Source of the DNA: an uncultured bacterium
GTDB taxonomy: Bacteria; Hydrothermota; UBA3072
Length of the DNA stretch: 64,000 nucleotides
Direction of reading: 5' to 3'
Assembly (NCBI GenBank): GCA_964418485.1
Contig: CAYQMH010000004.1
Location: 2,173 to 66,172 of the forward strand
Each line of letters begins with the position of its first letter. Within the stretch, counting starts at the first letter, position 1. Below the pieces are notes generated by a model that worked only from the letters and a program-made list of their open reading frames with translations, was not told where the DNA came from and did no database searches. This document shows, in pieces, positions 21,871 to 44,679 of this stretch. A program made the position numbers and the translations under genes.

Positions 21871-21986
21871 GCCCGGCAGCGACCTACTCTCTCACCTCCG
21901 AAGAGGCAATACCATAAGCACTGGAGAGCTTGACTTCCGTGTTCGGAATGGAAACGGGTATAACCTCTCCGTTATGGCCACCGAGC
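21871..21986 (-). rRNA. rrf: 5S ribosomal RNA (standalone; no 23S/16S within the window)
   Basis: Minus-strand sequence GCTCGGTGGCCATAACGGAGAGGTTATACCCGTTTCCATTCCGAACACGGAAGTCAAGCTCTCCAGTGCTTATGGTATTGCCTCTTCGGAGGTGAGAGAGTAGGTCGCTGCCGGGC matches the bacterial 5S consensus (CCGAACACGGAAGTTAAGC, GAGAGTAGG); terminal helix I pairs. Confidence 0.9.
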
Positions 21987-23964: not shown

Positions 23965-24469
23965 ACCTCCTTTTTTGTATTTTTTGAATTGTTGGGGTTA
24001 AAACAAAACTATAAATAATTCCTTGAGTAAAGACGTGCCAGATAACAAAAGGCAGTCCCAGAATGAAGTAAGCCATAAAACTCTTCCTTGTAGGAAAAAG
24101 AATGAATCCGGATGATGTAGTTAGTATATCGGATATAAGAGTAATTAGAACTCCTAAGGGTAAGATGATATGCGCTTTATTCCATCCTTTTTTATTGCAA
24201 AATCCTCCGGAAAATCCTATTAAGGTGCCTACGAGTACCTGTGTTAGTAAAAGAGGCGGGGGAGATATACCCATGGGATTTAATAAACCGAAAATGAAAT
24301 AAGTAAGGATTCCAACCAGCGTTCCTGTACGTATTCCGAATAGTGCTCCGGATAGGAAGACAGTAGAAGAAACAAGTTCAAAATTAGGGATATACGCGAA
24401 TGCGTACCCTAAACCTAAGGCTAACGCTGTAAATATTGTTACATATGATATTTCTTTTAGTTTTTCTAT
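23927..24469 (-). CDS. Small polytopic membrane protein in the B12-riboswitch operon; no canonical start codon (possible ATA start)
   Basis: ORF is open for ~60 codons upstream of the first ATG (MGISPP..) and encodes the hydrophobic N-terminus '..EKLKEISYVTIFTALALGLGYAF..'; SD GAGGGGAGAG sits 5 nt before an in-frame ATA. Confidence 0.5.
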   Translation of the reverse strand: MEKLKEISYVTIFTALALGLGYAFAYIPNFELVSSTVFLSGALFGIRTGTLVGILTYFIFGLLNPMGISPPPLLLTQVLVGTLIGFSGGFCNKKGWNKAHIILPLGVLITLISDILTTSSGFILFPTRKSFMAYFILGLPFVIWHVFTQGIIYSFVLTPTIQKIQKRRFDVINHTKRTVL

Positions 24470-24489
24470 TTTTTCTCTCCCCTCGGAGT

Positions 24490-24660
24490 ACTCATAAATA
24501 GCAGGTCTCCTGACTTATGGCCGGCCTACTCACTGCACCTTCCCGGAATAAATCCAGTGGTAACGTTGCAGCTTTCGTTGCCAAATACAGTAGCGGGGCT
24601 GTAACGGATTCTAACCGCTTTCCCTTAACTATTCCGTTTTATAATACTCTATTGTTGGTA
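24490..24660 (-). ncRNA. Cobalamin (AdoCbl) riboswitch
   Basis: Minus strand: ..TTAAGGGAAAGCGGTTAGAATCCGTTACAGCCCCGCTACTGT.. (GGGAA/GGTnnAATCC/CCCGC core), ..GCCACTGG.., and B12-box AAGTCAGGAGACCTGC (consensus rAGYCMGgAgaCCkGC) immediately before the SD of the downstream gene. Confidence 0.85.
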
Positions 24661-24696
24661 AAAGTCAAGACCATACAGCTTTGAATTGAAAGAAAG

Positions 24697-24907: not shown

Positions 24908-25000
24908 AAACCACAGAATATTTTTTGTTCTCTGTGGTTTTATTTTTTCTCTGTGTGCTCTGTGGTAAAATTGTTTTTTGGGGAGGGGGTGTAGCGGCTT
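24908..25000. repeat. Intergenic repeat (CTCTGTG arrays + GGGGAGGGGG)
   Basis: ccacagaata..ttctctgtgg..ttctctgtgtgctctgtgg..ggggagggggtg. Confidence 0.75.
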
Positions 25001-25006
25001 TGCCGC

Positions 25007-26272
25007 TCAGAACTTTCCCTGTATTCCTTTAATTACGTCGTTGAATATTATCAAAGCCATGAGAGAAAAAAGAATAATGGTGCCAGTCGTTTGAACAATT
25101 TTTAAAAGTGTTTTAGAAGGAGCTTTTCTTGTATTAAAAGTAGCTAGTGATACTATAATATAGAACCCATCGAGTGGCGGTATAGGAATAAGATTTACCA
25201 TAGCAAGATTAATTGTTATAAGTCCTACAAACATTAAGAACCATATAAAACCTCGATTTAGTTGTTTTTTGGTAATTATTACTATGCCTACAGGTCCTGC
25301 AAGTTCTTTTGGTGAAACTTTTCTCTGGAATAACCAGCTAAATGTTCGAGAAATTAGTAAGGCGGTATTACAGCTTTGTTGCCACGCAAATGAGATTGCC
25401 TGTATTCCACCAATACTTATTTTAGTTGAAAGTGGTTCTATTCCGATTATCCCTCTACTTATTATTGAATCTCCCTCCATGATCTTTTGCTTGTCGGGTA
25501 CTATATTAATTTTCATTGTATCGCCATTTGATAGGTATACGACGTTCAGTGTTTCTTCTGCCGCGGGATGGATTAGATCAGTTATGTCATTCCAGCTGTT
25601 TATGGATTTGTCTTGAATTTTGATTATCCGGCTGTCTTTTTTCATACCTGCTTTATCGGCGGGTAAATTTTTAATTACGTTACCTACTACCGGAAGTATG
25701 AAAGGAATTAATGAGTCAATGTTTAGAGAATCAATCACTATATCTGTTTTTTCTCCCTCTCGGAGGAGCGAAATTTTAGAGTTCTTTTGTATTTTTTCTA
25801 TAATTTCATACCAGTTGTTTATTTTCTTTCCGTCTATTTCCAATATTTCATCATTTGGTAAAAGGTTGCTCCCTGCATTTGCTTCTTTTATTGTAGTCGT
25901 CGGGATTACTTCGATGCCGTTGAATATGAAAACAGACAGGAATATTAAAAATCCGAGAGTGAAATTGCCAAACGAACCGGCGAAAACAACTGCTGTTTTT
26001 TGTAATCCGTTTTTAGAAAAAAATTCGTCATCTTCACCTTTAATTTGGTCCGGGTCCATTCCTTTTATTTCGACATATCCCCCAAAGGGTATTGCGGATA
26101 ACCTAAATTCCGTCTCTCCCCATTTGTAAAAAGAAAATAGTTTCGGACCAAGACCTATAGAGAAAACGGGGGCACTCATTTTTGACCACTTGGCTACAAT
26201 TAAATGGAAAAATTCGTGAACAAAGATCATAACGCTTAAAGCGATAAGTGCGGCAATTATACCTAAAAACAT
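25007..26272 (-). CDS. rseP: RIP (site-2) zinc metalloprotease RseP
   Basis: 'HEFFHLIVAKW' HExxH in TM1; PDZ domains; C-terminal LDG motif 'PIPPLDGF'. Confidence 0.85.
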   Translation of the reverse strand: MFLGIIAALIALSVMIFVHEFFHLIVAKWSKMSAPVFSIGLGPKLFSFYKWGETEFRLSAIPFGGYVEIKGMDPDQIKGEDDEFFSKNGLQKTAVVFAGSFGNFTLGFLIFLSVFIFNGIEVIPTTTIKEANAGSNLLPNDEILEIDGKKINNWYEIIEKIQKNSKISLLREGEKTDIVIDSLNIDSLIPFILPVVGNVIKNLPADKAGMKKDSRIIKIQDKSINSWNDITDLIHPAAEETLNVVYLSNGDTMKINIVPDKQKIMEGDSIISRGIIGIEPLSTKISIGGIQAISFAWQQSCNTALLISRTFSWLFQRKVSPKELAGPVGIVIITKKQLNRGFIWFLMFVGLITINLAMVNLIPIPPLDGFYIIVSLATFNTRKAPSKTLLKIVQTTGTIILFSLMALIIFNDVIKGIQGKF

Positions 26273-31981: not shown

Positions 31982-32416
31982 TTATACTCCTATCTCTAAT
32001 TTCTTTGGTTTCTGAGCTTCATGCGGATGTTTTTCATCGCAATAAACTTTTAATTTTTTTATCATTTGTCTTCCAAGTCTGTTTTTAGGTAACATGCCAG
32101 ATACTGCGTTAATTACTATTCCTTCGGGGTCTTTCTCTTTTTTAGTTTTGAAAGGAATTTCTTTTAGTCCACCAAGGTAACCGCTGTGTTTCCTGTACAA
32201 TTTTTGCGCTTCTTTTTTTCCGGTAAGTTTTACTTTGTCGGCATTTATGATGATAACAAAGTCACCATTGTCGAGATGAGGTGTAAAATCAGGTTTATGT
32301 TTACCCCTTAATATGCTGGCAGCTTTGGAAGCTACTCTCCCTAGGATTTTATCCTCGGCATCTAAAAGCCACCATTCCCGATTGATGTTTTCCCTCTTCA
32401 ATGAAAAAGTCTTCAT
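31982..32416 (-). CDS. rplM: 50S ribosomal protein L13
   Basis: '[25 protein letters not shown]'. Confidence 0.9.
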
Positions 32417-32677
32417 TTTTTCTCCTTTCCAAATTTTATGCTTTTTAACTTATTTTATTTGTATTCTTGGCTTAAATATATAAGGAAAAGGAATTTTGTC
32501 AAGAACTATTTTATTATTGCAAAGAAGTCATATAAAACAGAGAGAATTTAGAAGGCGGAAGTTAGAAGTTAGTATCCCATCTTCACCCAAAAGAACTGAT
32601 TTAATCATGAAGAGCTGATGGTAAGCAATTGATTTTTGCCACTTGAAATTTTATTTTTTTGCATTATAATAACTGGC

Positions 32678-32941
32678 ATGAAAAGAAGAAATTACATGGA
32701 GAGGATGGTTGAGGAAATTTTGAGTGAAATCTTTAAAACTTATCCTGATTATGAGGATTGTGAACCTTATAGAGAAGAAATAATTGCGCTGGCGCTCACT
32801 AAATGTGAACCTTTTTATACAACTAGTGATGTGGGGCACGCTGTGGTAAAAACGAGAATGGACAGTTTGGGATTTCGTTCAAAAGTCACTTCTATAGTTA
32901 TGGAAGCGATAGGACAAGTCAAAAAAAATCCCAGAGAGTAA
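32678..32941 (+). CDS. ComFB-like (late competence development protein) domain protein
   Basis: ~88 aa; 'MVEEILSEIFKTYPDYEDCEPYREEIIALALTKCEPFY' resembles the ComFB Cys pattern. Confidence 0.4.
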   Translation: MKRRNYMERMVEEILSEIFKTYPDYEDCEPYREEIIALALTKCEPFYTTSDVGHAVVKTRMDSLGFRSKVTSIVMEAIGQVKKNPRE

Positions 32942-33046
32942 ATATTACCTTAGGATTTAGCTTTAGTTTTGGTTTTTTTGACTTTTAGTCTAAATATTCG
33001 TCTTTGCTTTTTTTAACCTATTGTATATTTTTAAGGAGATTCTGGC

Positions 33047-33844
33047 ATGAAAGTTGGTTTTTTTCAATATTCGCCTATTTTTGGTAATCCTGAAAAAAAT
33101 TTAGATTTAATCAGAAAAAGTATCAGAGAAGCGGATTCTCTTGATATACTTGTTCTTCCTGAACTCGCTCTTACCGGATATACTTTTGAAGATTCTGAGG
33201 AGGCTTATTCTTTAAGTGAGGAGATTGGGGGGGGTAAATTAAGCGAGGAATTGGTTCGTATTGCCGAAGAAAATAACGTTACAATGGCAGTTGGTTTTCT
33301 GGAAAGAGAAGGTAAGCATCTTTATAACTCAAGTATTCTTGTTGACGGTAAAGGCGTTGTAGGAGTTTACCGAAAAGTACATCTTTTTCGTGAGGAAAAA
33401 GCTATTTTTAAATCAGGCAATATGGGTTTTCCGGTTTTTGAAGTTGATGGTGTTAAAGTTGGAATGCTGGTTTGTTTTGACTGGATATTCCCAGAGGCTA
33501 TGAGAACACTTGCCTTAAAAGGAGCGGATATTATTCTTCATTCAGCGAATTTAGTCTTACCTTTCTATCAGAAAGCGGCTGTTACCAGAGCGATAGAAAA
33601 CAAAGTTTTTATAGTTCTTGCGAATAGGAACGGAATAGAGGATAGATTTGGCGTATGCAATGAGTTTACGGGTGAAAGCGAAATTGTCGATCCCGAAGGA
33701 AAAGTACTATTGAAGACAGGAAAGCCCGATGTGGGGATTTTTTCAATCGATATAAATCCCGAAGAGGCCAGAGATAAAAAAGTTACGGAATTAAACGATA
33801 TATTCGAGGATCGTAAGCCGGAGTTTTATAAGAACTGGGGATGA
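33047..33844 (+). CDS. Carbon-nitrogen hydrolase family protein (nitrilase/amidase superfamily)
   Basis: E-K-C triad context: 'LVLPELALTGY', 'YRKVHLF', 'GMLVCFDWIFPE'. Confidence 0.75.
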   Translation: MKVGFFQYSPIFGNPEKNLDLIRKSIREADSLDILVLPELALTGYTFEDSEEAYSLSEEIGGGKLSEELVRIAEENNVTMAVGFLEREGKHLYNSSILVDGKGVVGVYRKVHLFREEKAIFKSGNMGFPVFEVDGVKVGMLVCFDWIFPEAMRTLALKGADIILHSANLVLPFYQKAAVTRAIENKVFIVLANRNGIEDRFGVCNEFTGESEIVDPEGKVLLKTGKPDVGIFSIDINPEEARDKKVTELNDIFEDRKPEFYKNWG

Positions 33845-33852
33845 ATAATTCT

Positions 33853-33990
33853 GCCACAGAGACACAGAGGACACAGAGGAACAACAAAGAACTATAGTTT
33901 GTTAAAACCCATCCCCCCAAAAAATTGGAAACAACAAATCACACAAATAGCACAAATCTTTTTTACTATTTAACTATTTTTTTAATTTAT
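33853..33990. repeat. Composite intergenic repeat (CACAGAG array - CCCATCCCCCC core - CACAAAT array - TTAACTATTT)
   Basis: gccacagagacacagaggacacagagg..gttaaaacccatccccccaaaaaattgg..atcacacaaatagcacaaatc. Confidence 0.85.
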
Positions 33991-34013
33991 CTATTAAACT
34001 TATACTATTATGC

Positions 34014-34043
34014 TTGAAAATTTTATTAATAGTGTTAGATTTA
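34014..34043 (+). promoter_or_regulatory. FCB/Bacteroidetes-type promoter for rnpB (TTG-N19-TAgaTTTa)
   Basis: TTGaaaattttattaatagtgtTAGATTTAtatatAGCGG; places the TSS at the predicted RNase P 5' end. Confidence 0.45.
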
Positions 34044-34047
34044 TATA

Positions 34048-34363
34048 TAGCGGAAGGGCGGGTAGTCGCGCTCTCTTTATGAGGGTGAGGAAAGTCCGGA
34101 CATTGCGGGTAAGAGAGGCTCCCTTAGGGAGGCACCGTAAGGTGACGGAAAGTGCCACAGAAAATATACCGCCTTGCTTTTGCAGGGTAAGGGTGAAAAG
34201 GCGAGGTAAGAGCTCACCGGACTTCTGGCGACAGGAGTCGCATGGTAAACCCCCTTTAATGCAAGACAAACAGGGTAGGTCCACTTGCCCGGACCGATAA
34301 TCCCGGGTAGTTGCAAAGATCAATGACTATCTATAACAGAATCCGGCTTATAGCCCTTCCGTT
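34048..34363 (+). ncRNA. rnpB: RNase P RNA, bacterial type A (compact)
   Basis: P4 'GAGGAAAGTCCGGAC'; 'ACAGAAAATATACCGCC'; 'GGGTAAGGGTGAAAAGGCGAGGTAAGAGCTCACC'; 3' 'ACAGAATCCGGCTTATAG'; P1 GGAAGGGC/GCCCTTCC closes the molecule. Confidence 0.9.
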
Positions 34364-34375
34364 TACTTAAAAAAT

Positions 34376-34510
34376 TGAACCACAGAGGACACAGAGAGAA
34401 ATAAACACACTGAGAACACAGAGGAAAAGGTGTTGTTTTAAAACCTCCCACCACCCCAAATTATTATTACACAAAGCCGCAAAGAACACAAAGCCCAACA
34501 CCACCCTTCT
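34376..34510. repeat. Composite intergenic repeat (CACAGAG array - CCCACCACCCC - AAATTATT - CACAAAG array)
   Basis: accacagaggacacagagag..gttttaaaacctcccaccaccccaaattattattacacaaagccgcaaagaacacaaagccc. Confidence 0.85.
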
Positions 34511-34621
34511 TTTTTTGTTTTTTTTCTGAAACCGGTTATGTTGACAAAGGTGATATTTGCTACAGGTTCAACATGTGAATATTCTGGTTGTTGGGTTGGG
34601 ATTTAAACAAAACTAATTTTT

Positions 34622-34720
34622 TTCTTTGTGTCTCCGTGTCTTTGTGTGAGATCCATTTGAGGTGGGGTGGAGAAAAACATCATGATTTTGTTTTTTCTTT
34701 TTCTCTGTGCGCTCTGTGGT
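34622..34720. repeat. Composite intergenic repeat, reverse orientation (CTTTGTG array - GGTGGGGTGG - CTCTGTG array)
   Basis: ttctttgtgtctccgtgtctttgtgtgag..gaggtggggtggag..ctctgtgcgctctgtgg. Confidence 0.8.
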
Positions 34721-36763
34721 TTATTCTTTTTCCGTGCTTAATTCTTTCTCCAATATTATCCATTCCTCGGAGAGTTCGGCGATTTGTGTTATAGCATTTT
34801 TGTATTCCTGGTAGTACTCTACCGGGATTAATTCTTTTTTATTTATGTAATAATCCGTATAAGTAATTGTTTTTTCGTCTTTAAGAAGAGTGTTTTTGAA
34901 TTCGATATAAGGATTTGATAAGTTAATTTCTTTTGGAAGATATCGAACTGCGTAGCCTTCGGGAATTTTTATATTTATTTCATTTTCTTCTTTCTCTAAT
35001 TTTCCCCAGTAAACCGGGTATTTTCTCATCCTAGCTCCAACGGAATAAGCAGAATATTCTATGCCCGGTATATGAAAAAGTAAGAAGTTGCCCTGTTTTA
35101 AAGCCAGGCCTTTTGCTCTATATTTTATATCGATTTTGACAACTGGTGCGGCATCTTCTATATGTATAAGAGAAAGATCTGTTATGTTTGAACCCGGTAT
35201 ATTGGCGTTCAGGTAGCTTTCAATCATATTTTTCTTATCTTCTTCTCTCATATATCTGAGGCTTTTAAGACTGGTAGCCATACTTCCGAGAAATATCATC
35301 GTTTCTTCTATTTCTGCCTTGCCTTTTTCGTTAAGTTCTATAGTTCTAGAAATAGAAGTTTTTTCTTTGTCCGGTTCAAATAGAGGTATTTTAATAAATT
35401 CGTTTTTTGTTACGGATAAACCTGTGGTACCCTGATATTCGGGTCTTACGTATCCATACGGGTTGAGCTCTAATGAAGGATCGAGGAAATTACCCCTGAG
35501 TTTTATCAAAGCTCCGTCGAATTGATAAAGAGAAGGGACGTTTTTGGCTAATTCACCTCTTGTTTTTGAGCGAACTAAAACTAATTCAGCAGTATACCCC
35601 TGTGATATTAGGGCAGAGTACAAAAGAGATGTTTTATCAAGAGAATTTGCCAATTTGTTTTCTAAAATTTCTTTTATACTTTTAGGATAACAGTTATATT
35701 TATAAGATGGCACGTCTACAAACCTTATCAAGTCTATAATTTCTTGATATATTTCTTCCGGTTCACTGTTTTGTGGAGTATATTTTCCTTCAAGATGTTT
35801 TTCAAAATTTTGAGATATTTTTTCCCAATTATTTTGGATTCCCGCAGTTATTCTCGGAAAAATGTAAGATTTTGGTGGTGCATTATCTTCGTCTTCATAT
35901 GCTTCCAGCAAGTCTGTTTCCCAATGGAGAATTTTATTTTTCCCTGAAAATTTCAATTCTGGTTCTTCAATTTTCCAATTCTGCCAGGCTATATCGAAGT
36001 ATCTGGGTGTTTCCACTCTGATAATACTTTTTAACGTCGGACCTGAACTTCCCAAGGTAGTTTCTAAAATAAAAGGGAAATCTTCAGATATTTTTCCGGA
36101 AATTGTAACTCCAAAATCCAGGAATTTTCCGGGTTTTACCTCCCGGAGTGCTATTTTTCTTTCATGGGCATTCTCATATGGTGGTATCCTTGAATAAATC
36201 GAAGCGTCCTCAATTGCATTTTCTCTAAGGTAAAGCACTTCACCTTCCCCGGTTATCGTTCTGCCGAAATTTATCTCCAGTTTTTCTTCTTTTGTGCTAT
36301 AATTGAAATTTATGTTGCCTGCGTTTTTTCCTTTTTCAGAGCAAATAGCCCTGATACATCTTGTTGAATATGTGTAACTGGAATCTTTTTCGATTTTTAG
36401 ATGTTTTTTGCAATAAATATCTACATATTTTTTATCTCTGAATTCCGAAAGGTTGGTCTTTAAACTTTGCAATAATATCGGATCTGTTATGTCCTTTGTG
36501 GTTTGCCACAGATAACCTTCTCTTTTTTGTGCGAGGTCGATGCTTCGGACTTCTTTTTGAGGAAAAGTAAGTAGAGTATCCGATGTTACTATGTATATAG
36601 AGTCGGGAGTTATTTTTGTCACTCTGCATTTGTATTCTTCACCTTTTTCCGTGTATATTATATCTTCTTTCCATTTGTTTTCGGTCTTTAGGATTTGTTT
36701 ATTACAGGACAGAAAGAAGATATTCGAAAGGATAATTACTAATAAAAAGATCTTTTTCATCAT
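34721..36763 (-). CDS. Lipoprotein, DUF3857/transglutaminase-like paralog with degenerate active site
   Basis: Lipobox 'FFLSC'; 680 aa; region aligning to the partner's Cys motif reads 'NSLDKTSLLYSALISQGYTAELV' (Cys lost). Confidence 0.55.
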   Translation of the reverse strand: MMKKIFLLVIILSNIFFLSCNKQILKTENKWKEDIIYTEKGEEYKCRVTKITPDSIYIVTSDTLLTFPQKEVRSIDLAQKREGYLWQTTKDITDPILLQSLKTNLSEFRDKKYVDIYCKKHLKIEKDSSYTYSTRCIRAICSEKGKNAGNINFNYSTKEEKLEINFGRTITGEGEVLYLRENAIEDASIYSRIPPYENAHERKIALREVKPGKFLDFGVTISGKISEDFPFILETTLGSSGPTLKSIIRVETPRYFDIAWQNWKIEEPELKFSGKNKILHWETDLLEAYEDEDNAPPKSYIFPRITAGIQNNWEKISQNFEKHLEGKYTPQNSEPEEIYQEIIDLIRFVDVPSYKYNCYPKSIKEILENKLANSLDKTSLLYSALISQGYTAELVLVRSKTRGELAKNVPSLYQFDGALIKLRGNFLDPSLELNPYGYVRPEYQGTTGLSVTKNEFIKIPLFEPDKEKTSISRTIELNEKGKAEIEETMIFLGSMATSLKSLRYMREEDKKNMIESYLNANIPGSNITDLSLIHIEDAAPVVKIDIKYRAKGLALKQGNFLLFHIPGIEYSAYSVGARMRKYPVYWGKLEKEENEINIKIPEGYAVRYLPKEINLSNPYIEFKNTLLKDEKTITYTDYYINKKELIPVEYYQEYKNAITQIAELSEEWIILEKELSTEKE

Positions 36764-38811
36764 TTCCCTCCAGGTAGCATAATTACAGGTCTCTTTACGT
36801 AGTTTAGTATTTCATTGCATAGGTCTTTATAATTAATATATTCGGAAACCTCTATTTTTTTATCTTTTCTCTTCCAGTTATCTTTAAATATTAAGGTGTC
36901 ATCTTTTTCCGTATAAGAAGCCGTATACTCGGCATTTTTTTCTTTTCTTGAGAATTCTTCCGGTACAGATAAAATTTTCATTTCTTCCGGTAAGAGTATT
37001 TTGAAGGTATTAATTACTTCTTCAGAGGTATCGTATATCAAATCATAGTTACGCGTAGAGAGAGAAAGCTCGTTTTTTGTATATCTTTCTTCTAACTCGG
37101 GAAGTTTCAACAAATATAACTCTCCCTGTTTTTTCAAAATTTCCGGTACTTCATATTTGATTGTCATTTCTAAAGGTTTGGATATATCCATCAGGTTTTC
37201 TAAATTATAATCTATCAGTCGGGCGTTGGGAGAAACTCTTTTTGCCATTTGTTCGAACTGTTTCTTTTTTTCATCTTCTTCGAGTCTTTGCCAGTAGGCT
37301 CTGACACCCGCTTCATAACTTCCGTTGTAGCCGGACTGAAAAGTAACGAAGGCTGAATCGCTGGAAGTTACTTCGATTAAGTAAGTGTAGTCTCTTCTGT
37401 TTCTTTCCGGAGTCGGTACTTCTATAAAGTCAATTCTAGATTTTTGCGCGCAAATTGCGTCGGTTCCGTGGTCCATAGTCGCAAAAGAAGGATATCTATG
37501 ATATTCGGAAACCGGATCCAGAAAATAAGGTTTTCCTTCTTTTGGGAAAATTTCTACTATAGCGTGGTCTCCCCAGAATGAAGGAATTTCTTTAATTAAT
37601 CTTGGGCCGGGATAAGTATGTAGATAAACAGGGTATGCTTCTATATCGACCGCTTTTAATAGGGTGGAGAAGAGTATGGATTTATCGGTGCAGTCTCCGT
37701 ATCCGTTTTCCATGGTTTCAGAAGCTTTGTGGCCCGAGACGCCGCTCGACGTACCTCCCTTAATAGATATATATCGTATATTTCTCTGTATCCAGTGATA
37801 CAGAGAAGCTGTTTTTTCTTCATGAGTGTTTAAACCTGTTGTCAAAGAATCCGCAATTTTTTGTATCTCTCCCGTTACCTCCATCCTTTTTTTCTGAAAA
37901 TCGGCGTACCAGTTGAATATATAATCCCAGTTTTTTTGGTTTGAGAAACGGAGAAAAGGTACAATCTCTTCCGTAACCGGCATTAGAGGTTCTTCAATGG
38001 GTGGTAGGGTATTTAATTTTTTGAAAGCAAGTACTTTCGTTGAGTTGGTAAATAAGGTATTAATGACAACACCCTTTTCGTTTTTTATAACATAATTACA
38101 ATAACTGCTCAAGGGTACAATTATTTCAACAAAAGATTCGATTACAGGCTCCGAACCTCCGAAGAACCATCCCAATGTGAAGATCTTTTTATCCCAGGGG
38201 TTAAAAATTTCTTCTGTGTATTTGTATTCAATGATATCTCCGACTTCGACTTCAGGAATTGAAAATGCGATTATTTTATCTTTGTCGAAGAACATACCTT
38301 CTTCTTTTGATTTTGTGATTGTTATTTTGTTCATATCGAGGGGTATAATTCTGCCGTTGCTTTTTATAACTCTTGCCATATCGATTTTTATATTTTCTCT
38401 TTGTTGGTCAAATTGTCGCTGGAAATTAGCCCAGCTTCGTTTGGAATCTTTTAAAATTAATCCGCGAAAATGGTATTCGTAATTACGAGTTCCGTCAGGA
38501 AACAGCTTATTTATGCCTTTATCGAGCATAACAACTCCGTCAAAATCTGCAAATTCCACAATTAAATTTTCTCTGTCTTCAAGGATGCCCTCGATATTCT
38601 TAGGTAATTCCCCTTTTCCCTTTTCAAGACCGCCTTCGCCTAATATAATGGATTTAACATCGGTTCTTAGTAAAAGGGTATCGGTTGTATAAATAGAGTC
38701 TTTTTTCATCTGAACTGAGTCCGAATTGATAATTTTTCCGTTGTTTAATTCGAGTCTATGAGAGAAGACGCTAAAGGATATAAGAGAGATTAATAAAAAT
38801 ATTTTTCTCAA
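36760..38811 (-). CDS. Transglutaminase-like (DUF3857-type) secreted protein
   Basis: Signal peptide; 'GYGDCTDKSILFSTLLKAVDIEAYPV' transglutaminase-like Cys core; 683 aa, paralogous to the upstream gene. Confidence 0.6.
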   Translation of the reverse strand: MRKIFLLISLISFSVFSHRLELNNGKIINSDSVQMKKDSIYTTDTLLLRTDVKSIILGEGGLEKGKGELPKNIEGILEDRENLIVEFADFDGVVMLDKGINKLFPDGTRNYEYHFRGLILKDSKRSWANFQRQFDQQRENIKIDMARVIKSNGRIIPLDMNKITITKSKEEGMFFDKDKIIAFSIPEVEVGDIIEYKYTEEIFNPWDKKIFTLGWFFGGSEPVIESFVEIIVPLSSYCNYVIKNEKGVVINTLFTNSTKVLAFKKLNTLPPIEEPLMPVTEEIVPFLRFSNQKNWDYIFNWYADFQKKRMEVTGEIQKIADSLTTGLNTHEEKTASLYHWIQRNIRYISIKGGTSSGVSGHKASETMENGYGDCTDKSILFSTLLKAVDIEAYPVYLHTYPGPRLIKEIPSFWGDHAIVEIFPKEGKPYFLDPVSEYHRYPSFATMDHGTDAICAQKSRIDFIEVPTPERNRRDYTYLIEVTSSDSAFVTFQSGYNGSYEAGVRAYWQRLEEDEKKKQFEQMAKRVSPNARLIDYNLENLMDISKPLEMTIKYEVPEILKKQGELYLLKLPELEERYTKNELSLSTRNYDLIYDTSEEVINTFKILLPEEMKILSVPEEFSRKEKNAEYTASYTEKDDTLIFKDNWKRKDKKIEVSEYINYKDLCNEILNYVKRPVIMLPGGK

Positions 38812-38886
38812 TATTCCTCCTTTTCCGACTATTGAAAAAAGTATACAAAGCGTACAAAAATCTATTTGTCTTTTACTGCTGCTTTT

Positions 38887-39702
38887 TTACGTTGTTTTTT
38901 TCTTTCTTCTATAACCAAGTATTATAACAAAAACAGAAGTTAATATCATAAATATGCTTAAGACCTGCGAAAGAGTAAGGTATTTAAGAATCAAAGCATT
39001 TCCGGAGTATTGTCGGAAGAAATCGATGGTGAAACGGTGGAGTCCGTAAAGACCTATGAATAAGGTAAAAAGGAAACCATTGAAGAGCGTTTTCTTTCTA
39101 ATTTTCCATAATATTCCGAAAATTATCAATAGATTTAAGGTCGATATCAGTTGTGTGGGAATGACAGATAAGCTATGCGAAGTTCCCTCGGTAATTAAAC
39201 CTCGTTGTAAGTGATCCGAATACACAGGAGGATACCATTTCGCAGGAAAGCGGACTCCTATCCAGGAATCCGTAACCCTTCCGTAGCAGCAACCATTAAG
39301 AAAACAACCTATTCTGCCGATACCAATTGCTATGGCAATCCCGGGTGCCATAATATCCATAACTTTAGCCATCGGCAATTTTGCTATTTTGATAAAGAGT
39401 ATTCCTCCTATAAAACCTCCGATAAAACCACCATAAAATACCATTCCTCCTTCCCATAGCTTAAAAATAGCAATAGGATTAGAGGCGAACTGGTACCAGT
39501 TTTCCGATACGTACCATATTCGGGCTCCAATAAGCATTCCGACTATGACCCACATAGTCAGAGATTGAACCAGTACGGGCTTTATATCGTTTCTAATCGC
39601 TTCTTTGTTTATAAAGTACATTCCGACAAGATATCCGGTTACTGCCATAACTCCGTAAGCAGGTAATTGAAAATTTCCGATTATAAGTAAATATCTGTAC
39701 AT
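38887..39702 (-). CDS. lgt: Prolipoprotein diacylglyceryl transferase
   Basis: Polytopic; Lgt signature 'GRIGCFLNGCCYGRVTD'; 'WGG'. Confidence 0.85.
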   Translation of the reverse strand: MYRYLLIIGNFQLPAYGVMAVTGYLVGMYFINKEAIRNDIKPVLVQSLTMWVIVGMLIGARIWYVSENWYQFASNPIAIFKLWEGGMVFYGGFIGGFIGGILFIKIAKLPMAKVMDIMAPGIAIAIGIGRIGCFLNGCCYGRVTDSWIGVRFPAKWYPPVYSDHLQRGLITEGTSHSLSVIPTQLISTLNLLIIFGILWKIRKKTLFNGFLFTLFIGLYGLHRFTIDFFRQYSGNALILKYLTLSQVLSIFMILTSVFVIILGYRRKKKTT

Positions 39703-39713: not shown

Positions 39714-40571
39714 TTATTGTTTAGAATTGACAGTTTTTAGTTTATTTTGTATGTTCTTTCTTAGTTCGGACCTTCTTACAAATGTATTTGAAGGGCATTT
39801 TTCTAAAGCGGGTTCCAAAAGCTTATTATCTTTTATTTTACTCCATTGTACCATTGCGAGCTTGCCGTCCATTTCTATTATTTCATCTTCTGTTACTCTT
39901 GTGCATAAAGTACAGCCAGTACATCCTCTCGAACATACACTCTTAACATTTTTTGCATCATCGTAAGAACGGCAGGCTATGTATATGTCCTGGTCTTTTG
40001 GAATAAGTTTAAAAAGTCCCCTCGGGCAAGTTTCCACGCAAATTCCGCATGCTGTACAATTCTCTTCTATTACATAGGGTAATCCTTTTTCACCCATTTC
40101 AATCGCGTTAAAAGGGCATGCCCGAACACAGTCTCCGAGTCCCAGACAACCGTACTGGCATCCTTTATCTCCCCCCATCAAATTAAGAGCTTCGCATGTC
40201 GATATTCCGTCGTAATCAGCTGTTCTCTTTGCGGTTTCGCTGTCGCCAAGACAACAAAGAACAGACACTTCTTCCGGGCCTGTGTTTTTTTCTTTAATCC
40301 CCATTATTTCCGAGATTTTACTAGCCGCTTTCTGTCCACCGGCTTTACAGCCGTTTACCCCATATTGACCTTCGACAACGCCACCAGCAAAAGCTGCGCA
40401 CCCAGGAGCGCCACAGGCACCGCAATCTATACCGGGCAAGATTTCCCGGATTTTTTCTACCCTTTCATCATTTTTTACCTTGAACTTTTCAGCGCTAAAA
40501 ACTAAAAAAGCTCCAAAGATAAGCGTTAATCCGGCGAGCAATAATACAGGTACTAAAACTTGATTCATCAA
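39714..40571 (-). CDS. RnfB-like Fe-S protein (N-terminal TM, CxxCGxxGC Fe-S domain, multiple 4Fe-4S ferredoxin motifs); standalone
   Basis: 'DCGACGAPGCAAF' then CxxCxxCxxxCP motifs x2+; no other rnf genes adjacent. Confidence 0.65.
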   Translation of the reverse strand: MMNQVLVPVLLLAGLTLIFGAFLVFSAEKFKVKNDERVEKIREILPGIDCGACGAPGCAAFAGGVVEGQYGVNGCKAGGQKAASKISEIMGIKEKNTGPEEVSVLCCLGDSETAKRTADYDGISTCEALNLMGGDKGCQYGCLGLGDCVRACPFNAIEMGEKGLPYVIEENCTACGICVETCPRGLFKLIPKDQDIYIACRSYDDAKNVKSVCSRGCTGCTLCTRVTEDEIIEMDGKLAMVQWSKIKDNKLLEPALEKCPSNTFVRRSELRKNIQNKLKTVNSKQ

Positions 40572-40644: not shown

Positions 40645-40825
40645 ACCACAGAGTACACGGGGAAGAAATTAGAAAAATTGAAAAATGGGAAAATAGTAAA
40701 ATGGTAACAAAAAACTTTAAACTAAATACTAATGTTTAAAAATTAACCACAAAGGTCACAAAGATTTTCTTTCTGTTTTTACTATTCAACTATTCAACAA
40801 TTTAACCATTCAACTTAGTCTATTG
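40645..40825. repeat. Intergenic repeat (CACAGAG, CACAAAG units + TTCAACTA tandem)
   Basis: taccacagagtacac..aaccacaaaggtcacaaag..ctattcaactattcaacaatttaaccattcaactt. Confidence 0.75.
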
Positions 40826-40831: not shown

Positions 40832-42010
40832 TTAGTTTATAAGAGAGGGGAGAGCTACTGAGTTATGTGTAAAATAACCGCTTATTTCTTCGATATGTTT
40901 TAATGCCTTAAAGAATGCATCCGTGGTTTCGGGGCAGAAATGTTCGCCTCTTTCTTGATGAATCATAGCGAATGTTTTAGAAAGGGAGAACGGTTTTTCT
41001 CTATATGGTCTATCTGAAGTAAGAGCATCAAAAAAATCAGATAAAGCTACTATTCTGCCCGATAAAGGTATTTTTTTTCCTTTAAGACCCCTTGGATAAC
41101 CTTTCCCATCCCATCTTTCATGATGGGTATAAGCTATCTCGGCGGCAGTCTTAATTATTTCTGATTTAGAATCTTTCAGAAGTTTAAATCCAAGCGTGGT
41201 GTGTCCTTTCATTATTTCCCATTCCTCCGCGTTAAGTTTGCCGGGTTTGTTGAGTATCTTATCCGGAATACCTATTTTGCCTATATCATGCAGAGGGCTG
41301 CTTCTATAAATAGTTTCCACCAGATCATCTTTTAGCCCTAAAGTTTCGGCTATTATTTTTGAGAAGATTGCGACTCTTTTAATATGATCTCCGGTTTCTT
41401 TGTCTTTATATTCGGCAGCTTCACCGAGTACGAAAATTGTTTCTAATTGCGCGGATTCAAGTTCGTCTGTAAGCTGAGCATTTCTTATTGCTACAGCCGC
41501 CTGTGAGGCGAGAGATTCGGTTAATTTTTCATCTGCTTTGCTAAAAGGTTTTATTTTCCCTCTTTCGGTTTTGTTTATAAGTTGAAATACTCCTACTAAT
41601 TGTCGTTTTCTGTCTATAATAGGTACTGTTAACATCGATTTGCATTTATAGCCTGTTTTTTCCTCGAATTCCGTATTATGACAGTAGGGACGGCCTTTTA
41701 TGGCATTTAAATCTTTTATATTTAATATTTTTTTATTTTTAGCACTCCAGCCCGCAATGGATTTGTTTGATATTGGAAGGGCATGTGGGGCAATCAAGTC
41801 AAGGAAATTTTTCTTACCCATTTTTTTTTCGAGGGTAAGATTACGTGAAACTCTGAATTCCAGTTTGTTATCGTTCTTAAGGTAAAATGTTCCGGCGTCC
41901 GCTTTACAAAGTTTAGAGGTATCTTCGAGGATTACATGAAGCAGTATGGAGAGGTCTCTTTCCGCTGCTAATTTGATACCTATTTCGATTAATGTATCGT
42001 AATTACTCAT
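40832..42010 (-). CDS. GAF-domain HD-GYP phosphodiesterase (c-di-GMP)
   Basis: N-terminal GAF; HD '..LHDIGKI..'; 'HHERWDGKGYPRGL' HD-GYP signature. Confidence 0.8.
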   Translation of the reverse strand: MSNYDTLIEIGIKLAAERDLSILLHVILEDTSKLCKADAGTFYLKNDNKLEFRVSRNLTLEKKMGKKNFLDLIAPHALPISNKSIAGWSAKNKKILNIKDLNAIKGRPYCHNTEFEEKTGYKCKSMLTVPIIDRKRQLVGVFQLINKTERGKIKPFSKADEKLTESLASQAAVAIRNAQLTDELESAQLETIFVLGEAAEYKDKETGDHIKRVAIFSKIIAETLGLKDDLVETIYRSSPLHDIGKIGIPDKILNKPGKLNAEEWEIMKGHTTLGFKLLKDSKSEIIKTAAEIAYTHHERWDGKGYPRGLKGKKIPLSGRIVALSDFFDALTSDRPYREKPFSLSKTFAMIHQERGEHFCPETTDAFFKALKHIEEISGYFTHNSVALPSLIN

Positions 42011-42057: not shown

Positions 42058-42230
42058 ACCGCAGAGTCTACAGAGAAGTAAGGACTTCTCAGTATTTAAT
42101 TGTAAATTGCAAGTTGTAAATTGAAAATTGAAAATTTAAAAACAGAAATAGGACGCAGATGAACGCAGATTTTCAGGATTCTTTGTTTTTACTATGTTAA
42201 CTATTTAACAATTCAACTATATTAACTCAA
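42058..42230. repeat. Intergenic repeat incl. TTGTAAATTGCAAG tandem, 23-nt motif copy 2 (42148-42170), TTAACTATTTAAC units
   Basis: accgcagagtctacagag..ttgtaaattgcaagttgtaaattgaaaattgaaaattt..ataggacgcagatgaacgcagat..ctatgttaactatttaacaattcaactatattaact. Confidence 0.8.
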
Positions 42231-42284
42231 ATTCGGAGAATTTGTTAAATTGATACGGATATACGCGGATAAAAAAAGGGGCAT

Positions 42285-42345
42285 AGTTACATACAATATT
42301 AGTAATATCGATTAACTATGCCCTATGTTTTAGAGCTCTATTTTA
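42285..42345 (-). terminator. Intrinsic terminator downstream of the RRM gene (11-bp perfect stem + T-tract on minus strand)
   Basis: gggcatagtta..(23 nt loop)..taactatgccc; minus strand continues CTTTTTTTAT. Confidence 0.6.
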
Positions 42346-42357: not shown

Positions 42358-42648
42358 CTAATTTGACCATGGGGTGCGGCCACCACCGCCTCTTCCGAAA
42401 TTTTCAGTACGAGGTCGAGCTTTAGTTACTTTCAGTTCTTTTCCTTTGAGTTCTTTGCCGTTTAAACCGGCAATTGCTGCTTCTGCTTCGCTTTCCTTTG
42501 GCATTTCAACAAATCCAAAGCCTCTATTTTCGCCTGTGTACCTGTCTTTGATTAGTCTAACAGAAGTTAGCTCACCGTAAGATGAAAATTCTTTATTCAT
42601 TTCTTCTTCGGTCAATTGTGATGAAATGTTACCTACATATATATTCAT
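42358..42648 (-). CDS. RRM-domain RNA-binding protein with Gly-rich C-terminus
   Basis: RNP-2 'NIYVGNI', RNP-1 'RGFGFVEM'; GRGGGGR tail; start chosen at MNIYVGN. Confidence 0.85.
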   Translation of the reverse strand: MNIYVGNISSQLTEEEMNKEFSSYGELTSVRLIKDRYTGENRGFGFVEMPKESEAEAAIAGLNGKELKGKELKVTKARPRTENFGRGGGGRTPWSN

Positions 42649-42867
42649 ATTACCTCCTTTTAGGTTTGAATATTTACATGTTTTCGTAAATGTAATTAAA
42701 TCCGAATACAATCCTGCAGAAAAAGTATTGAGATGTCTAACCGGCAAAACCAGAATGGAGATAAAAAAGTATTAACAATTATATTCCGAACGATCTTGAA
42801 GGTTCCATAACCTACATTTACTGCGTCTATAATACTTGATTTTCAAGAAAAGTCAAGGGGGGGATTC

Positions 42868-43015
42868 ACCACAGAGGTCACAGAGCAAAACAAAACACAC
42901 AGAGAGTACAGAGAAAAAAAGTATTTTTTTGTTTTTAAAACCCACTTCCCCGCACAAAATTATTCTCACGCAAAGTCACAGAGAACACAAAGAAAAAAAT
43001 ATTTGTGTTTTTAAA
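42868..43015. repeat. Composite intergenic repeat (CACAGAG array - CCCACTTCCCC - AAAATTATT - CACAGAG/CACAAAG)
   Basis: caccacagaggtcacagagc..acacagagagtacagag..gtttttaaaacccacttccccgcacaaaattattctcacgcaaagtcacagagaacacaaag. Confidence 0.85.
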
Positions 43016-43192
43016 ATTCGTTCCCATTGACTTGATTCTTTAAATCCGTTATTATTATGAAAAAAAAGTTGATCAAATAACGAAAAAGAAAATCTGTTGA
43101 ATAAAGTGAATGATGGCAAAATCTTTGTGATAAAATTGGAGAGTTAAATTAAAGGATTTTTTTTACTGATAGAAAAATTAAAAGAAATATTA

Positions 43193-44473
43193 ATGGCTTC
43201 ATTATTTTTTACGCTGTTTTTCACTCAAAGTTGTTTTGCTTTGGAAGATAGTAATATTTATGATAAATATTCTTTTATATCAGGAAATGAACAACTATCT
43301 GAAAGAGTACTTATGCTTGACTTATCAAACCCTTTAAAAAATTATGAGGCAAATTCAAATTTGTTCCTTTCTATAAATCAATTATCAGGAAGAGCTAATG
43401 ACTTTTTAGGAATATGGCTTAATGGTGATAATTATAGATGGTCCAGAATCTTGCTGTTATGTGGTTCATGGTGGCTATCCGTCGGTGAATCATATTATTC
43501 TCACGAAATTGCGCATTTATTCAGGCCAAGAAGGAATGGATTAAAATGCTACGTTGATATTGATATGAATGATTGGTGGTCTCATTTATGGCCTAGATAT
43601 AAAGCATTAGTTTCAAGTTATCGAGAAATGACTGATGAGGATTTTCTTGGAGTGGTGGTTGAGGGTTTAAATCAGTGGGAATTTAATTCTTTTAATAAAT
43701 GGTCTTTAAGCGTAAAACAGAATCAACTATCTCTTAATGATGTTGTTTACTTTTTTATAGAAAAATTATGGGATATGGAATACATATTACATGTCGGATT
43801 TGACGATTTTACCCCCAGATGGAAACTAGATTATATTGCTTTTCTTGGGTATTGTGATGTTAGAAATCTGCATAGTGATATTGATGTTTATACGATATAT
43901 CTTTCTAATTTTAATGATATTGAATTGAAAAAAACCGAATATCTGGGTCAAACAATGCTGGCAGATTTGCTTTCATTTCATACCTGGGAAAGTATTTTTT
44001 TGATTATAAAGTACTTGTTTTCCGGAAATAGATACTCCAGCCCCTGGAAAATTGAATTTAGCGATAATTTAAAAGTTTTACCGCCAATAATTAATATTTA
44101 CGCAACTTCTAAGGGAGGGTTCTTTAATTCAACATCATTAATAAAGGTAGGGAAAAGTCATAATATATTTTTATCTTTTGGTTTAGATGCTGATGGGGTT
44201 GGAGGTGGCGAGGTGGATTGCTTTAGACTGGGTGTGAATTATCAAGACTTAAATATAGCAAAATTTTCATTTGCTCCTTTTTTCAATATTAATACTACAA
44301 GGAATTTACAATATAAGGGTGCTTCAATTGGAATGTGTATAAACTTCAGAATCAATGAAAATATATTATTTAGAACAAAGTACGAATACAATGATAATGA
44401 TATAATAGAAAATGTAGTAAAAAATAAAGACGAAGGCTCCCTAATCACATTGGGTTTTGCCGTAAGAATTTGA
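43193..44473 (+). CDS. Hypothetical secreted protein with HExxH motif
   Basis: 426 aa; N-terminal signal peptide; 'YYSHEIAHLFRP' at ~aa 100; W/Y-rich; no family recognised. Confidence 0.5.
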   Translation: MASLFFTLFFTQSCFALEDSNIYDKYSFISGNEQLSERVLMLDLSNPLKNYEANSNLFLSINQLSGRANDFLGIWLNGDNYRWSRILLLCGSWWLSVGESYYSHEIAHLFRPRRNGLKCYVDIDMNDWWSHLWPRYKALVSSYREMTDEDFLGVVVEGLNQWEFNSFNKWSLSVKQNQLSLNDVVYFFIEKLWDMEYILHVGFDDFTPRWKLDYIAFLGYCDVRNLHSDIDVYTIYLSNFNDIELKKTEYLGQTMLADLLSFHTWESIFLIIKYLFSGNRYSSPWKIEFSDNLKVLPPIINIYATSKGGFFNSTSLIKVGKSHNIFLSFGLDADGVGGGEVDCFRLGVNYQDLNIAKFSFAPFFNINTTRNLQYKGASIGMCINFRINENILFRTKYEYNDNDIIENVVKNKDEGSLITLGFAVRI

Positions 44474-44477: not shown

Positions 44478-44529
44478 CAAACAAAGCACACAAAGACACA
44501 AAGAAAATAGGACGCAGATGAACGCAGAT
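44478..44529. repeat. CACAAAG array + 23-nt motif copy 3 (44507-44529)
   Basis: caaacaaagcacacaaagacacaaagaaaataggacgcagatgaacgcagat. Confidence 0.85.
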
Positions 44530-44610
44530 TTAAAAGAATTTTTTGTTGTTTTATACCTCTGACTTACTAATTCTTAATACTCAAATTATATAAAATCTTT
44601 TCACATTTCA

Positions 44611-44679
44611 ATGCCTGACCCTGTTGATATGACCCTGTTGATACTGTTGATATTCACAATGCCTGACCCTGTTGATATT
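44611..44679 (+). repeat. Direct repeats of (ATGCCT)GACCCTGTTGATAT (3-4 copies)
   Basis: atgcctgaccctgttgatat gaccctgttgatac tgttgatatt cacaatgcctgaccctgttgatatt. Confidence 0.8.

Follow-up and report, generated by a model that had tools for sequence, protein, structure and literature searches.

The DNA analysed here is a 64,000-nt stretch (hereafter the window; GC content ~36%) of contig CAYQMH010000004.1, from an uncultured bacterium whose closest named relatives belong to "candidate division WOR-3" (HD-GYP proteins 74% and 62% identical). Its intergenic regions carry a family of short direct-repeat arrays built on heptamers such as CACAGAG and CACAAAG, and this family is the subject of the analysis. 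Rfam matches in the window were limited to rnpB (34050-34366, +), a 5S rRNA gene (21871-21985, -) and a cobalamin riboswitch (24485-24666, -). At both gathering and permissive thresholds, no Rfam family fits the window elements or 18 loci of other phyla.

The repeats are strongly over-represented and strictly intergenic. CACAGAG occurs 33 times in the window, compared with 2.83 +/- 1.66 in dinucleotide shuffles, and CACAAAG 28 times, compared with 6.69 expected. With an array defined as at least two heptamers separated by 1-3 nt, and arrays merged, the window contains 26 arrays, against 0.08 (maximum 2) in shuffled intergenic sequence. All 26 fall in the non-genic 12.6% of the window, and by inspection an element is present in 16 of the 22 intergenic regions that reach 100 nt. 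The gene map is incomplete: four segments counted as intergenic (18341-18533, 19773-20090, 20850-21700 and 24275-24480) are coding-like and are probably short or unlisted genes or gene fragments. An earlier examination of the letters alone (the sequence-only reading) had described a real, modular, oriented and intergenic family, and this description stands: the k-mers are far above the level set by composition and are positionally biased. Its modules were present at all 16 of the loci it listed, and one further copy was found at 17229-17270. The statement that nearly every intergenic region contains an element was a mild overstatement, although most do.

The elements are not an assembly artefact, a worry raised in that reading, because three independent assemblies have one and the same sequence around 33853-34110. 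Of these, the longest (L001; L numbers denote loci) matches the window at 99.96% over 32316-39368, spanning all three elements that flank rnpB. The near-identical strains compared differ only within rnpB and are uninformative on array dynamics. A CRISPR array, which the sequence-only reading had already discounted, was ruled out by the 9-nt unit, the 2-5 units per array and the dispersal over 17 loci; the match to CRISPR-DR58 is at chance level (E = 2.9).

The repeat unit is a 9-mer made of a heptamer C-[AG]-C-N-[AG]-A-[GT], with versions that include CACAGAG, CACAAAG and CGCAGAT, followed by about two purines. The unit-bearing strand is almost devoid of T, and arrays start in the window at a head of the form ...T-N-A-C-C. 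The period of 9 nt is below a helical turn and does not support the previous suggestion that it approximates one. Composite elements follow a recurrent order, namely a CACAGAG array, an A-run, TTTGTGTTGTTTAAAAC, a C-rich block of 10-12 nt, AAAAATATTCTCA, a CACAAAG array and a T-run; this order is found at 33853, 34376 and 42868, and in relatives L207 and L208. The stretch ahead of the C-rich core is T-rich/TAAAAC, and the one behind it A-rich/ATTCTCA. Among the side modules that had been proposed, CGCAGAT-GAA-CGCAGAT (AATAGGACGCAGATGAACGCAGATTTTCAGGATTTTT; four copies against 0.0 expected) and TAACTGCTAAC (two copies against 0.14 expected) exceed expectation, whereas AACTATTCAAC and TTGTAAATTG are not clearly over chance as scored in the window. 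Many different short-period arrays share the same intergenic regions. The elements of the window are as follows:

6320-6460: imperfect inverted pair with a G-rich core, forward CACCAAGGCACGAAG at 6325-6339 and reverse CTTCGTGACTTAGTGTCTTTGTG at 6426-6448; between two + strand genes
11588-11645 (+): forward array of 2+2 CACAGAG, then a C-rich block; overlap between the ACC head and the TGA that ends gene 9929-11587
17229-17270 (+): CGCAGAT-GAA-CGCAGAT module in the short intergenic region after carB
20091-20226 (+): CGCAGAT-like module, CACAAAG array, C-rich block and TAACTGCTAACTGC module
21728-21860 (-): degenerate units (CACGAAA/CACTAAA) and two C-rich cores; begins 10 nt past the 5S rRNA 3' end
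24908-25000 (-): C-rich core, CACAGAG array and terminal hairpin ACCACAGAGAAC...GTTCTGTGGTTT (z = -5.0); right after the stop of gene 25007-26272 (-)
33853-33990 (+): composite of CACAGAG x3, TTGTTAAAACC, CCATCCCCCC, A-run, CACAAAT x2 and T-run; 9 nt past the stop of gene 33047-33844, ending ~24 nt upstream of the rnpB promoter-like site
34376-34530 (+): composite of CACAGAG arrays, GTTTTAAAACC, TCCCACCACCCC, CACAAAG x3, a second C-rich block and T-run; 10 nt past the rnpB 3' end
34622-34720 (-): composite, inverted relative to 34376-34530; the ACC head abuts the stop of gene 34721-36763 (-)
40645-40825 (+): CACAAAG array, T-run and AACTATTCAAC module; the ACC head is 11 nt from the -35 TTGACA (40633-40628, -) of gene 39714-40571, reading away
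42058-42230 (+): head ACCGCAGAG, then TTGTAAATTG module, CGCAGAT module, T-run and AACTATTTAAC module; the head is 10 nt from the -35 TTGACA (42047-42042, -) of gene 40832-42010
42868-43015 (+): composite ending in the hairpin CACAAAG-A7TA-TTTGTG and a T-run; fills the gap between divergent promoter-like sites (-35 at 42856-42851, -; 43027-43032, +)
44478-44529 (+): CACAAAG array and CGCAGAT-GAA-CGCAGAT module, directly past the stop of gene 43193-44473
46660-46822 (-): composite; the head, at 46822, is 32 nt upstream of a promoter-like site at 46855-46883 (+)
47710-47905 (-): composite with two cores, of which the second is telomere-like (GGGATTTAG on +); head against the stop of gene 47904-49067 (-); orthologous elements are present in L207 and L208
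52350-52580 (+): concatenated core, CACAAAG x3, core, CACAGAG arrays, T-run and TAACTGCTAAC; begins ~7 nt off a TTGACA (52342-52337, -), taken by eye for the -35 of gene 51826-52311
53461-53690 (-): degenerate, with TAGTGAG module, ATCTTGTG/ATCTGTG units, a G-rich GGGATTTAG-type core and ATTTGTG units; in a divergent region, adjoining the -35 at 53447-53442 (-)

The G-rich strand of some cores reads as plant-telomere-like repeats (GGGATTTAG / TTTAGGG, at 47740-47770 and 53538-53570), which could make G-quadruplexes.

The ACC head sits against a -35 box, a stop codon or the 3' end of an RNA. Eight heads (11588, 21860, 25000, 33853, 34376, 34720, 44478 and 47905) read away from a gene whose end, the stop codon or, for rnpB and 5S rRNA, the RNA 3' end, is 0-12 nt off. 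Four ACC-type heads (40645, 42058, 42868 and ~52350) lie ~7-11 nt upstream of an opposite-strand -35 box of the TTGACA type, again reading away, and the module at 53461 is 13 nt from a fifth box (53447). The boxes at 40633, 42047, 42856 and 53447 were taken from a scan; the one near 52342 was identified by eye. Across the tandem intergenic regions of the window, arrays are sense or antisense to transcription in a ratio of ~5:4 by inspection. Adjacency of the head to a -35 box was rejected as a general rule, being found at 0 of 149 heads in other phyla and confined to this lineage and one phage group.

Most window copies are unstructured as single strands, with folding energies of -3 to -10 kcal/mol per 100-150 nt (z ~0), and for 8 of 10 elements the fold is no better than that of shuffles (z from -0.7 to +1.3). 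Real terminal hairpins are present in two copies (24908-25006, z = -5.0; 42868-43017, z = -1.8), and arrays often run on past their final unit into a partial inverted copy (TTTGTG) and a T-run. The claim that the elements do not fold into hairpins like those of repetitive extragenic palindromes (REPs) is accordingly right for most window copies, but not for these two, nor for the family at large, whose usual form is a hairpin-forming inverted pair.

Comparison with relatives shows that the class of element is retained while its sequence turns over fast. Elements are present at orthologous sites in L124, L126 and L206-L208, whose flanking proteins are 76-87% identical to those of the window; rnpB, where present (L124 and L126), is 94% identical, alongside protein identities of 80-87%. 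At these sites the class of element is kept, but the unit type (e.g. CGCAGAT for CACAGAG), the unit number, the orientation and whole modules differ. Such differences between close relatives are at odds with the proposal that the copies are old rather than recently transposed. The promoters adjoining the elements are conserved. An array by the -35 box of the HD-GYP gene is found in three of four genomes, at equal spacing and with 2-4 units of differing sequence, and two head-to-(-35) positions are kept in L206 and L207.

The same comparison revealed a variable segment. The ~4.45 kb between 43193 and 47641 are absent from the syntenic L206 locus and are replaced by other genes in L207 and L208. 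Its five genes encode an unknown 426-aa protein, a HEPN AbiU2 protein (44710-45378), a DUF4211-like protein, a nucleotidyltransferase (46725-47237) and its small partner (47234-47641). The segment is bracketed by inverted composite elements (42868-43015, +; 47710-47905, -), and no other intergenic region is as rich in arrays in any of the four genomes, for which reason it resembles a variable-island hot spot. Beside the 3' end of AbiU2, at 44609-44679, lie 2.9 tandem copies of a 25-nt repeat (CAATGCCTGACCCTGTTGATATTCA) with no relation to the heptamer family.

The arrays are conserved across phyla. A scan of one genome per species with the pattern ACCACAGAGNNCACAGAG gave at least 120 loci; the matches listed include Acidobacteriota, Planctomycetota, delta-proteobacterial groups, Chloroflexota, Nitrospirota, Bacteroidota, Verrucomicrobiota and Gemmatimonadota, as well as Cyanobacteria, Gamma- and Betaproteobacteria, Negativicutes, Chlamydiae, Cloacimonadota and the archaeon Ca. 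Ethanoperedens. The same arrays occur in Geobacter and Shewanella, and cultured carriers include Bacteroides finegoldii, B. ovatus, Nostoc, Pseudoalteromonas and Gemmatirosa (72% GC). In viral contigs, a two-unit pattern gave at least 120 matches against 50 for a mirror-image control, and a three-unit pattern at least 120 stretches against 8. No match was found in 5,426 complete Escherichia coli genomes. The commonest short-period heptamer arrays in the unbiased parts of the loci are CACAGAG, CGCAGAG, CGCAAAG and CACGAAG. With the same head and heptamer array in many phyla, an archaeon and phage contigs, the element is not the genome-specific one that had been suggested. Bacteroides intergenic regions in general often carry arrays (5 of 16 in L454). 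Small "bacteriophage sp." records with arrays were not accepted as phages; they are marked unverified and were judged likely to be Bacteroides-like fragments. A literature search by sequence and topic found no description of the arrays, only primers and unrelated matches, though other papers may exist. A B. fragilis primer contains CTCTGTGTTCTCTGTGGTG (PMC3090145), and a paper on Shewanella SO2426 was set aside as a description since its match is likewise a primer.

The loci of other phyla define the rules of the array more closely. The spacer between heptamers is 2 nt in 91-97% of cases and purine-rich (GA > AA/AG > GG). The 5 nt ahead of the first unit are TTCAC, TTAAC, TTGAC, TTTAC or TGAAC; the conserved head of the family is TTNAC-C. 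Within 300 nt, 44% of arms have an inverted partner. In 68 such pairs, arm-to-arm mismatches affect heptamer positions in 0-11 pairs and the 2-nt spacers in 33-45, which shows that the heptamer motif itself is conserved and not merely its base pairing; L055 and L065 even have unlike units in their two arms. The orientation of pairs follows a clear rule, with heads outward in 46 and inward in 4. In most organisms the arrays are paired heads outward, and such a pair makes up a long imperfect palindrome bordered by an A-run and, at its opposite end, a T-run: sequence is T-rich downstream of 56% of pairs (16% background) and A-rich upstream of 67% (14% background), and these flanked pairs look like terminators.

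The gene context of the arrays across phyla is tandem in 57 cases, convergent in 22 and divergent in 10. Single arrays show no consistent sense bias (sense to antisense: genomes 13:20, viral contigs 64:35). Of the sense arrays in viral contigs, half begin within 10 nt of a stop codon, and many arrays run into the Shine-Dalgarno sequence of the next gene, the last unit CACGGAGG being that sequence. Several phage contigs (L231, L254, L259 and others; 57-60% GC) have a CACAGAG array followed by a CTTAAAA(C/T)-type array before the start codon, a modularity like that of the window. Nested palindromes, in which outer CGCAAAG/CGCAGAG arrays surround inner CACAGAG arrays, occur in L205 (Gemmatirosa) and in the 5.4-kb viral locus L390, which has at least three near-identical copies within 5 kb.

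One gene family recurs with the arrays. In annotated DNA of B. finegoldii (L454), a "GxxExxY protein" gene (15222-15596) has CACAGAG arrays on both sides with their heads outward; the ~125-aa product belongs to PF13366 (PDDEXK_3) and TIGR04256. Heads-outward arrays also flank GxxExxY genes at two other loci found through the arrays (L066, Geobacteraceae, and L114), while in L073 (Prosthecobacter) arrays on both sides have their heads facing the gene. When genomes and metagenomes were entered from the protein, five of five proteins (nine loci) were flanked on both sides with heads outward, including a Geobacter-type gene between nuo genes and genes of Blastocatellia and Gemmataceae. The protein-found viral locus L455 has CACAAAG/CACGAAG units. 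Loci from a plasmid collection have CACAGAG units in Bernardetia, CGCAGAG in Gemmatirosa, single CACGGAT/ATCCGTG units in Treponema, and direct flanking repeats in Prevotella and Fusobacteria. The gene of Sphingomonas parapaucimobilis (L467) has CGCGAAG units and is inserted between fabD and fabG, and genes of a phage clade have inverted arrays of other short units (ACTTAAAATTTT and similar; ACTTAAAA-type). Every well-conserved GxxExxY locus examined, in at least seven phyla, is array-flanked, and the left array supplies the ribosome-binding site of the gene. This link lay beyond the reach of the sequence-only reading.

Other candidate partners did not hold up. All-versus-all clustering of 3,342 open reading frames (ORFs) gave no general conserved neighbour, and its small three-locus cluster was GxxExxY. 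No recurrent transposase was found among 120 loci, and whatever else array pairs enclosed proved to be an ordinary gene or an ORF artefact.

The type of flanking unit tracks divergence of the protein: GxxExxY proteins at 65-76% identity have CACAGAG or CGCAGAG, and those at 37-53% have CACAAAG, CGCGAAG, CACGGAT or ACAAAT. The named Geobacter, Blastocatellia and Gemmataceae proteins are 65-76% identical to one another, and the more than 8,000 homologues lie mostly on ~1 kb contigs. Invariant residues are D69, E79 and K81, together with G26, E29 and Y32 of the GxxExxY motif. An AlphaFold model (pLDDT 90.5) gave as its best fold matches, all weak, Cas4, lambda exonuclease and RecB-type nucleases, and on these grounds GxxExxY looks like an active, mobile PD-(D/E)XK nuclease. 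Defence-system and phage libraries gave weak Cas4-type matches only, with no PHROG, and a PDB sequence search gave no match. A survey of the superfamily lists the family as of unknown function and reports "multiple transfers" between Bacteria and Archaea (PMC3424549); a literature search found no description of its function, though other papers may exist. In L467 and in the Geobacter-type loci L470 and L472, GxxExxY is co-oriented between adjacent housekeeping genes that normally form one operon (in L472, after a Proton_antipo_M, nuo-type gene), an arrangement which suggests insertion without operon disruption.

Taken together, these observations are best explained, with about even confidence on our part, if the window elements are iteron elements comparable to REPs and to miniature inverted-repeat transposable elements (MITEs), whose full-length form is the GxxExxY cassette, and if this WOR-3-related lineage has amplified them, let them decay in part and has them as punctuation between its transcription units. 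A broader proposal is advanced more tentatively. The arrays may be the recognition iterons and terminal repeats of an unrecognised cross-domain minimal mobile element whose sole gene is the ~125-aa GxxExxY. Such an element would be the source of REP/MITE-like boundary elements, in the hundreds of thousands, across bacterial phyla, some archaea and phages, and in some lineages, this WOR-3 relative among them, those boundary elements would have been co-opted as the main punctuation between transcription units.

The mechanism proposed would run as follows. The arrays would be the terminal repeats of the GxxExxY cassette, a full-length pair enclosing the gene, and GxxExxY may recognise or cut them. 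Empty pairs and solo arrays would be non-autonomous derivatives, like MITEs or the REPs of bacterial interspersed mosaic elements (BIMEs), with solo arrays descending from pairs. Spread and turnover may proceed through nuclease- or recombination-mediated copying and unit slippage, and persistence may reflect a harmless or useful seat at transcript boundaries, directly behind stop codons and the 3' ends of RNAs or a little upstream of -35 boxes. At such places, a U-less unstructured array with its partial inverted copy and T-run may terminate transcription or act as an insulator; the boundary, insulator or terminator role put forward in the sequence-only reading is still a live idea. In the WOR-3-related lineage, amplification and diversification would have continued until most intergenic regions were filled.

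Several observations weigh against this explanation. No GxxExxY gene was found by hmmsearch in the window or in the fetched relatives, and the window copies could therefore only be gene-less relatives of the cassette ends. Most of them are unpaired direct arrays in either orientation to transcription, most do not fold, and sites with a generic hairpin and T-run are not enriched in the window (15 against 14.1 expected). No target-site duplications were found: immediately outside the ACC head, 3 nt of one arm complement those of the other instead of repeating them directly, and the A- and T-runs extend the palindrome. Neither an insertion event nor a clean empty site was caught. The GxxExxY gene of Persicobacter has no flanking repeats, and some other genes have quite different ones. 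Because arrays are so common in Bacteroides intergenic regions, part of the association could reflect cassettes that carry ordinary boundary elements. Finally, the heads near -35 boxes, two of them conserved in position in relatives, fit a host function at least as well as selfish spread. Their fixed spacing to the boxes and the lack of target-site duplications keep alive two explanations in which the host, or a host protein, is the user of the arrays.

The main rival, which we consider unlikely, is that the arrays, paired or with a partial inverted unit and a T-run behind them, are host cis-elements at transcript boundaries (terminators, 3'-end stabilisers or read-through insulators) which GxxExxY cassettes merely need or land in. 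It draws on the eight heads at stop codons or at rnpB and 5S 3' ends, the same adjacency for half of the sense arrays in phage contigs, the excess of convergent over divergent contexts and the T-run after every forward array in the window. The A- and T-runs around pairs and the 46:4 heads-outward rule, which places a pyrimidine-rich arm 3' in both directions of transcription, point the same way, as do the promoter-adjacent positions conserved in relatives. A terminator needs no specific heptamer, however, yet this one is conserved from 36% to 72% GC and in an archaeon; the spacers between heptamers are only about half complementary, and most window copies are unfolded. About four of nine tandem intergenic regions have an antisense array, and arrays in phage operons also serve as 5' leaders that run into the Shine-Dalgarno sequence.

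Next in rank, and improbable in our judgement, is an array of DNA sites for an abundant nucleoid-associated or regulatory protein, which would form a filament with one heptamer per 9 bp and mark or insulate the regions upstream of promoters. A conserved heptamer with a free 2-bp spacer, in direct and inverted arrangements, recalls plasmid iterons and the heptads of the omega repressor. The heads ~7-11 bp upstream of -35 boxes (40645, 42058, 42868 and 52350) and the module 13 bp from 53447, with the two positions conserved in L206 and L207, are consistent with such sites, and so is the lack of orientation bias relative to transcription. The purine/pyrimidine strand asymmetry and the adjacency to stop codons would be unexpected for a double-stranded DNA site, no head among the 149 of other phyla adjoins a -35 box, no candidate protein was identified, and no neighbouring gene except GxxExxY is conserved.

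A role at the level of RNA is less probable again. The U-less, unstructured, purine/CA-rich arrays could act in translation, as enhancers or ribosome standby sites, or could offer binding sites or sponges to a protein that binds single-stranded RNA, for instance the RNA recognition motif (RRM) protein encoded at 42358-42747, whose gene has elements on both sides. Sense arrays are essentially unstructured, those in phage contigs form 5' leaders ending in a Shine-Dalgarno unit, and the left array of the cassette is the ribosome-binding site of GxxExxY; but antisense arrays are as frequent as sense arrays relative to the local transcript, and most window copies are separated from the next start codon by more than 100 nt that include a promoter. 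Rho utilisation (rut) sites were rejected as the general function, since CACAGAGGA arrays contain more G than C, contrary to rut sites, and arrays lie in either orientation and are present in cyanobacteria. To our knowledge, cyanobacteria lack Rho. The RRM-protein target was down-weighted because crosslinking and immunoprecipitation sequencing (CLIP-seq) of Bacteroides RbpB yielded AU-rich ligands and FopS, not such arrays (PMC11697453).

That the arrays are neutral by-products of replication slippage in spacer DNA, microsatellite-like and without any trans-acting factor, would suit the rapid change of unit number and type between relatives and the coexistence of different short-period arrays in the same intergenic regions, but it is very improbable and already hard to sustain in the face of a common heptamer, head and 2-nt spacing across phyla and GC contents, a mirrored control at least 15-fold rarer, the 46:4 rule and the specific association with GxxExxY.

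Some other features of the window are recorded here. The 5S rRNA gene (21871-21985, -) appears unlinked: it has no adjacent 23S rRNA gene, and its upstream same-strand neighbour encodes a TonB-dependent receptor. The cobalamin riboswitch (24485-24666, 91.9 bits) lies upstream of a small gene (23927-24274) and a TonB-dependent receptor gene (22231-23964, -). The RRM gene is followed by a canonical long-loop intrinsic terminator, GGGCATAGTTA...TAACTATGCCCC and then T7 (~42271-42324, -), which is conserved in L206 and was missed by a simple terminator scan owing to its loop length.

If correct, the cassette explanation would account for a very common and apparently undescribed class of intergenic sequence in important gut and environmental phyla, including Bacteroides, Acidobacteria, Planctomycetes, Geobacter and cyanobacteria, and in their phages. 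It would give the orphan GxxExxY/PDDEXK_3 family, with its more than 8,000 close homologues, a first functional context, and would add a system like that of REPs and REP-associated tyrosine transposases (RAYTs) with a different enzyme fold and iteron-type ends. The arrays also matter in practice: they break metagenome assemblies, they mark operon boundaries, and in this lineage they appear to coincide with an insertion site for hypervariable islands. They are amenable to direct test in genetically tractable Bacteroides, for which transcriptome maps exist.

Among known systems, the arrays invite comparison with REP, BIME and REPIN (REP doublet forming a hairpin) sequences and their RAYT (TnpA-REP). 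Both are high-copy and strictly intergenic, often form inverted pairs with variable linkers, are enriched at gene 3' ends, have a conserved head and a patchy taxonomic distribution, and flank a small single-domain nuclease-type gene. They differ in that the units here are direct 9-mers and REPs are palindromes of 20-40 nt, and in that the head is TTNACC instead of a GTAG or CGTC tetranucleotide. The gene here is a PD-(D/E)XK GxxExxY, whereas RAYT is a Y1/HUH transposase (IS200/IS605-like), and the array sequence is common to many phyla where REPs are species-specific.

MITEs and their autonomous insertion sequences (ISs) offer a second parallel, with terminal inverted repeats containing iterons, and with many gene-less copies and rarer gene-carrying ones that share the same ends. 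The B. finegoldii cassette ends and the empty pairs have TTCACC...GGTGAA heads and CACAGAG-type units in common, and the many short (~1 kb) contigs with GxxExxY are as expected of multi-copy DNA. Unlike MITEs and ISs, the arrays lack a target-site duplication, their cargo is a 125-aa nuclease without known transposase activity, their loops go down to 4-30 nt, and the window has mostly solo arrays.

Bidirectional Rho-independent terminators, among them the paired DNA uptake sequences (DUS) and uptake signal sequences (USS) of Neisseria and Haemophilus, likewise place an inverted short motif downstream of genes, with an A-run upstream, a T-run downstream and a pyrimidine-rich arm 3' in both directions. 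In the arrays, by contrast, the stems are broken every 7 bp by poorly complementary spacers, the motif crosses phyla, and the window copies are mostly one-armed and unfolded.

Heterocystous cyanobacteria possess short tandemly repeated repetitive (STRR) sequences, contiguous 7-nt non-coding repeats of other sequences, e.g. CCCCAGT. These are also heptamer-based non-coding tandem arrays with several unit types per genome, but their period is 7, and the arrays described here have a period of 9, a free 2-nt spacer, a defined head and a cross-phylum range. Plasmid iterons and omega-repressor heptads are contiguous and restricted to a few plasmid promoters or origins. Their 7-bp units, direct or inverted and read by a small protein, are the best mechanistic analogy for the way a protein might read the arrays, although neither a ribbon-helix-helix nor a Rep protein is implicated here. 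In 23S rRNA intervening sequences, a small, widely transferred ORF lies within inverted repeats inside transcription units that it does not disrupt. GxxExxY is similarly a widely transferred small gene inside inverted repeats; it belongs to another gene family, and its sites are intergenic or intercistronic and not within rRNA.

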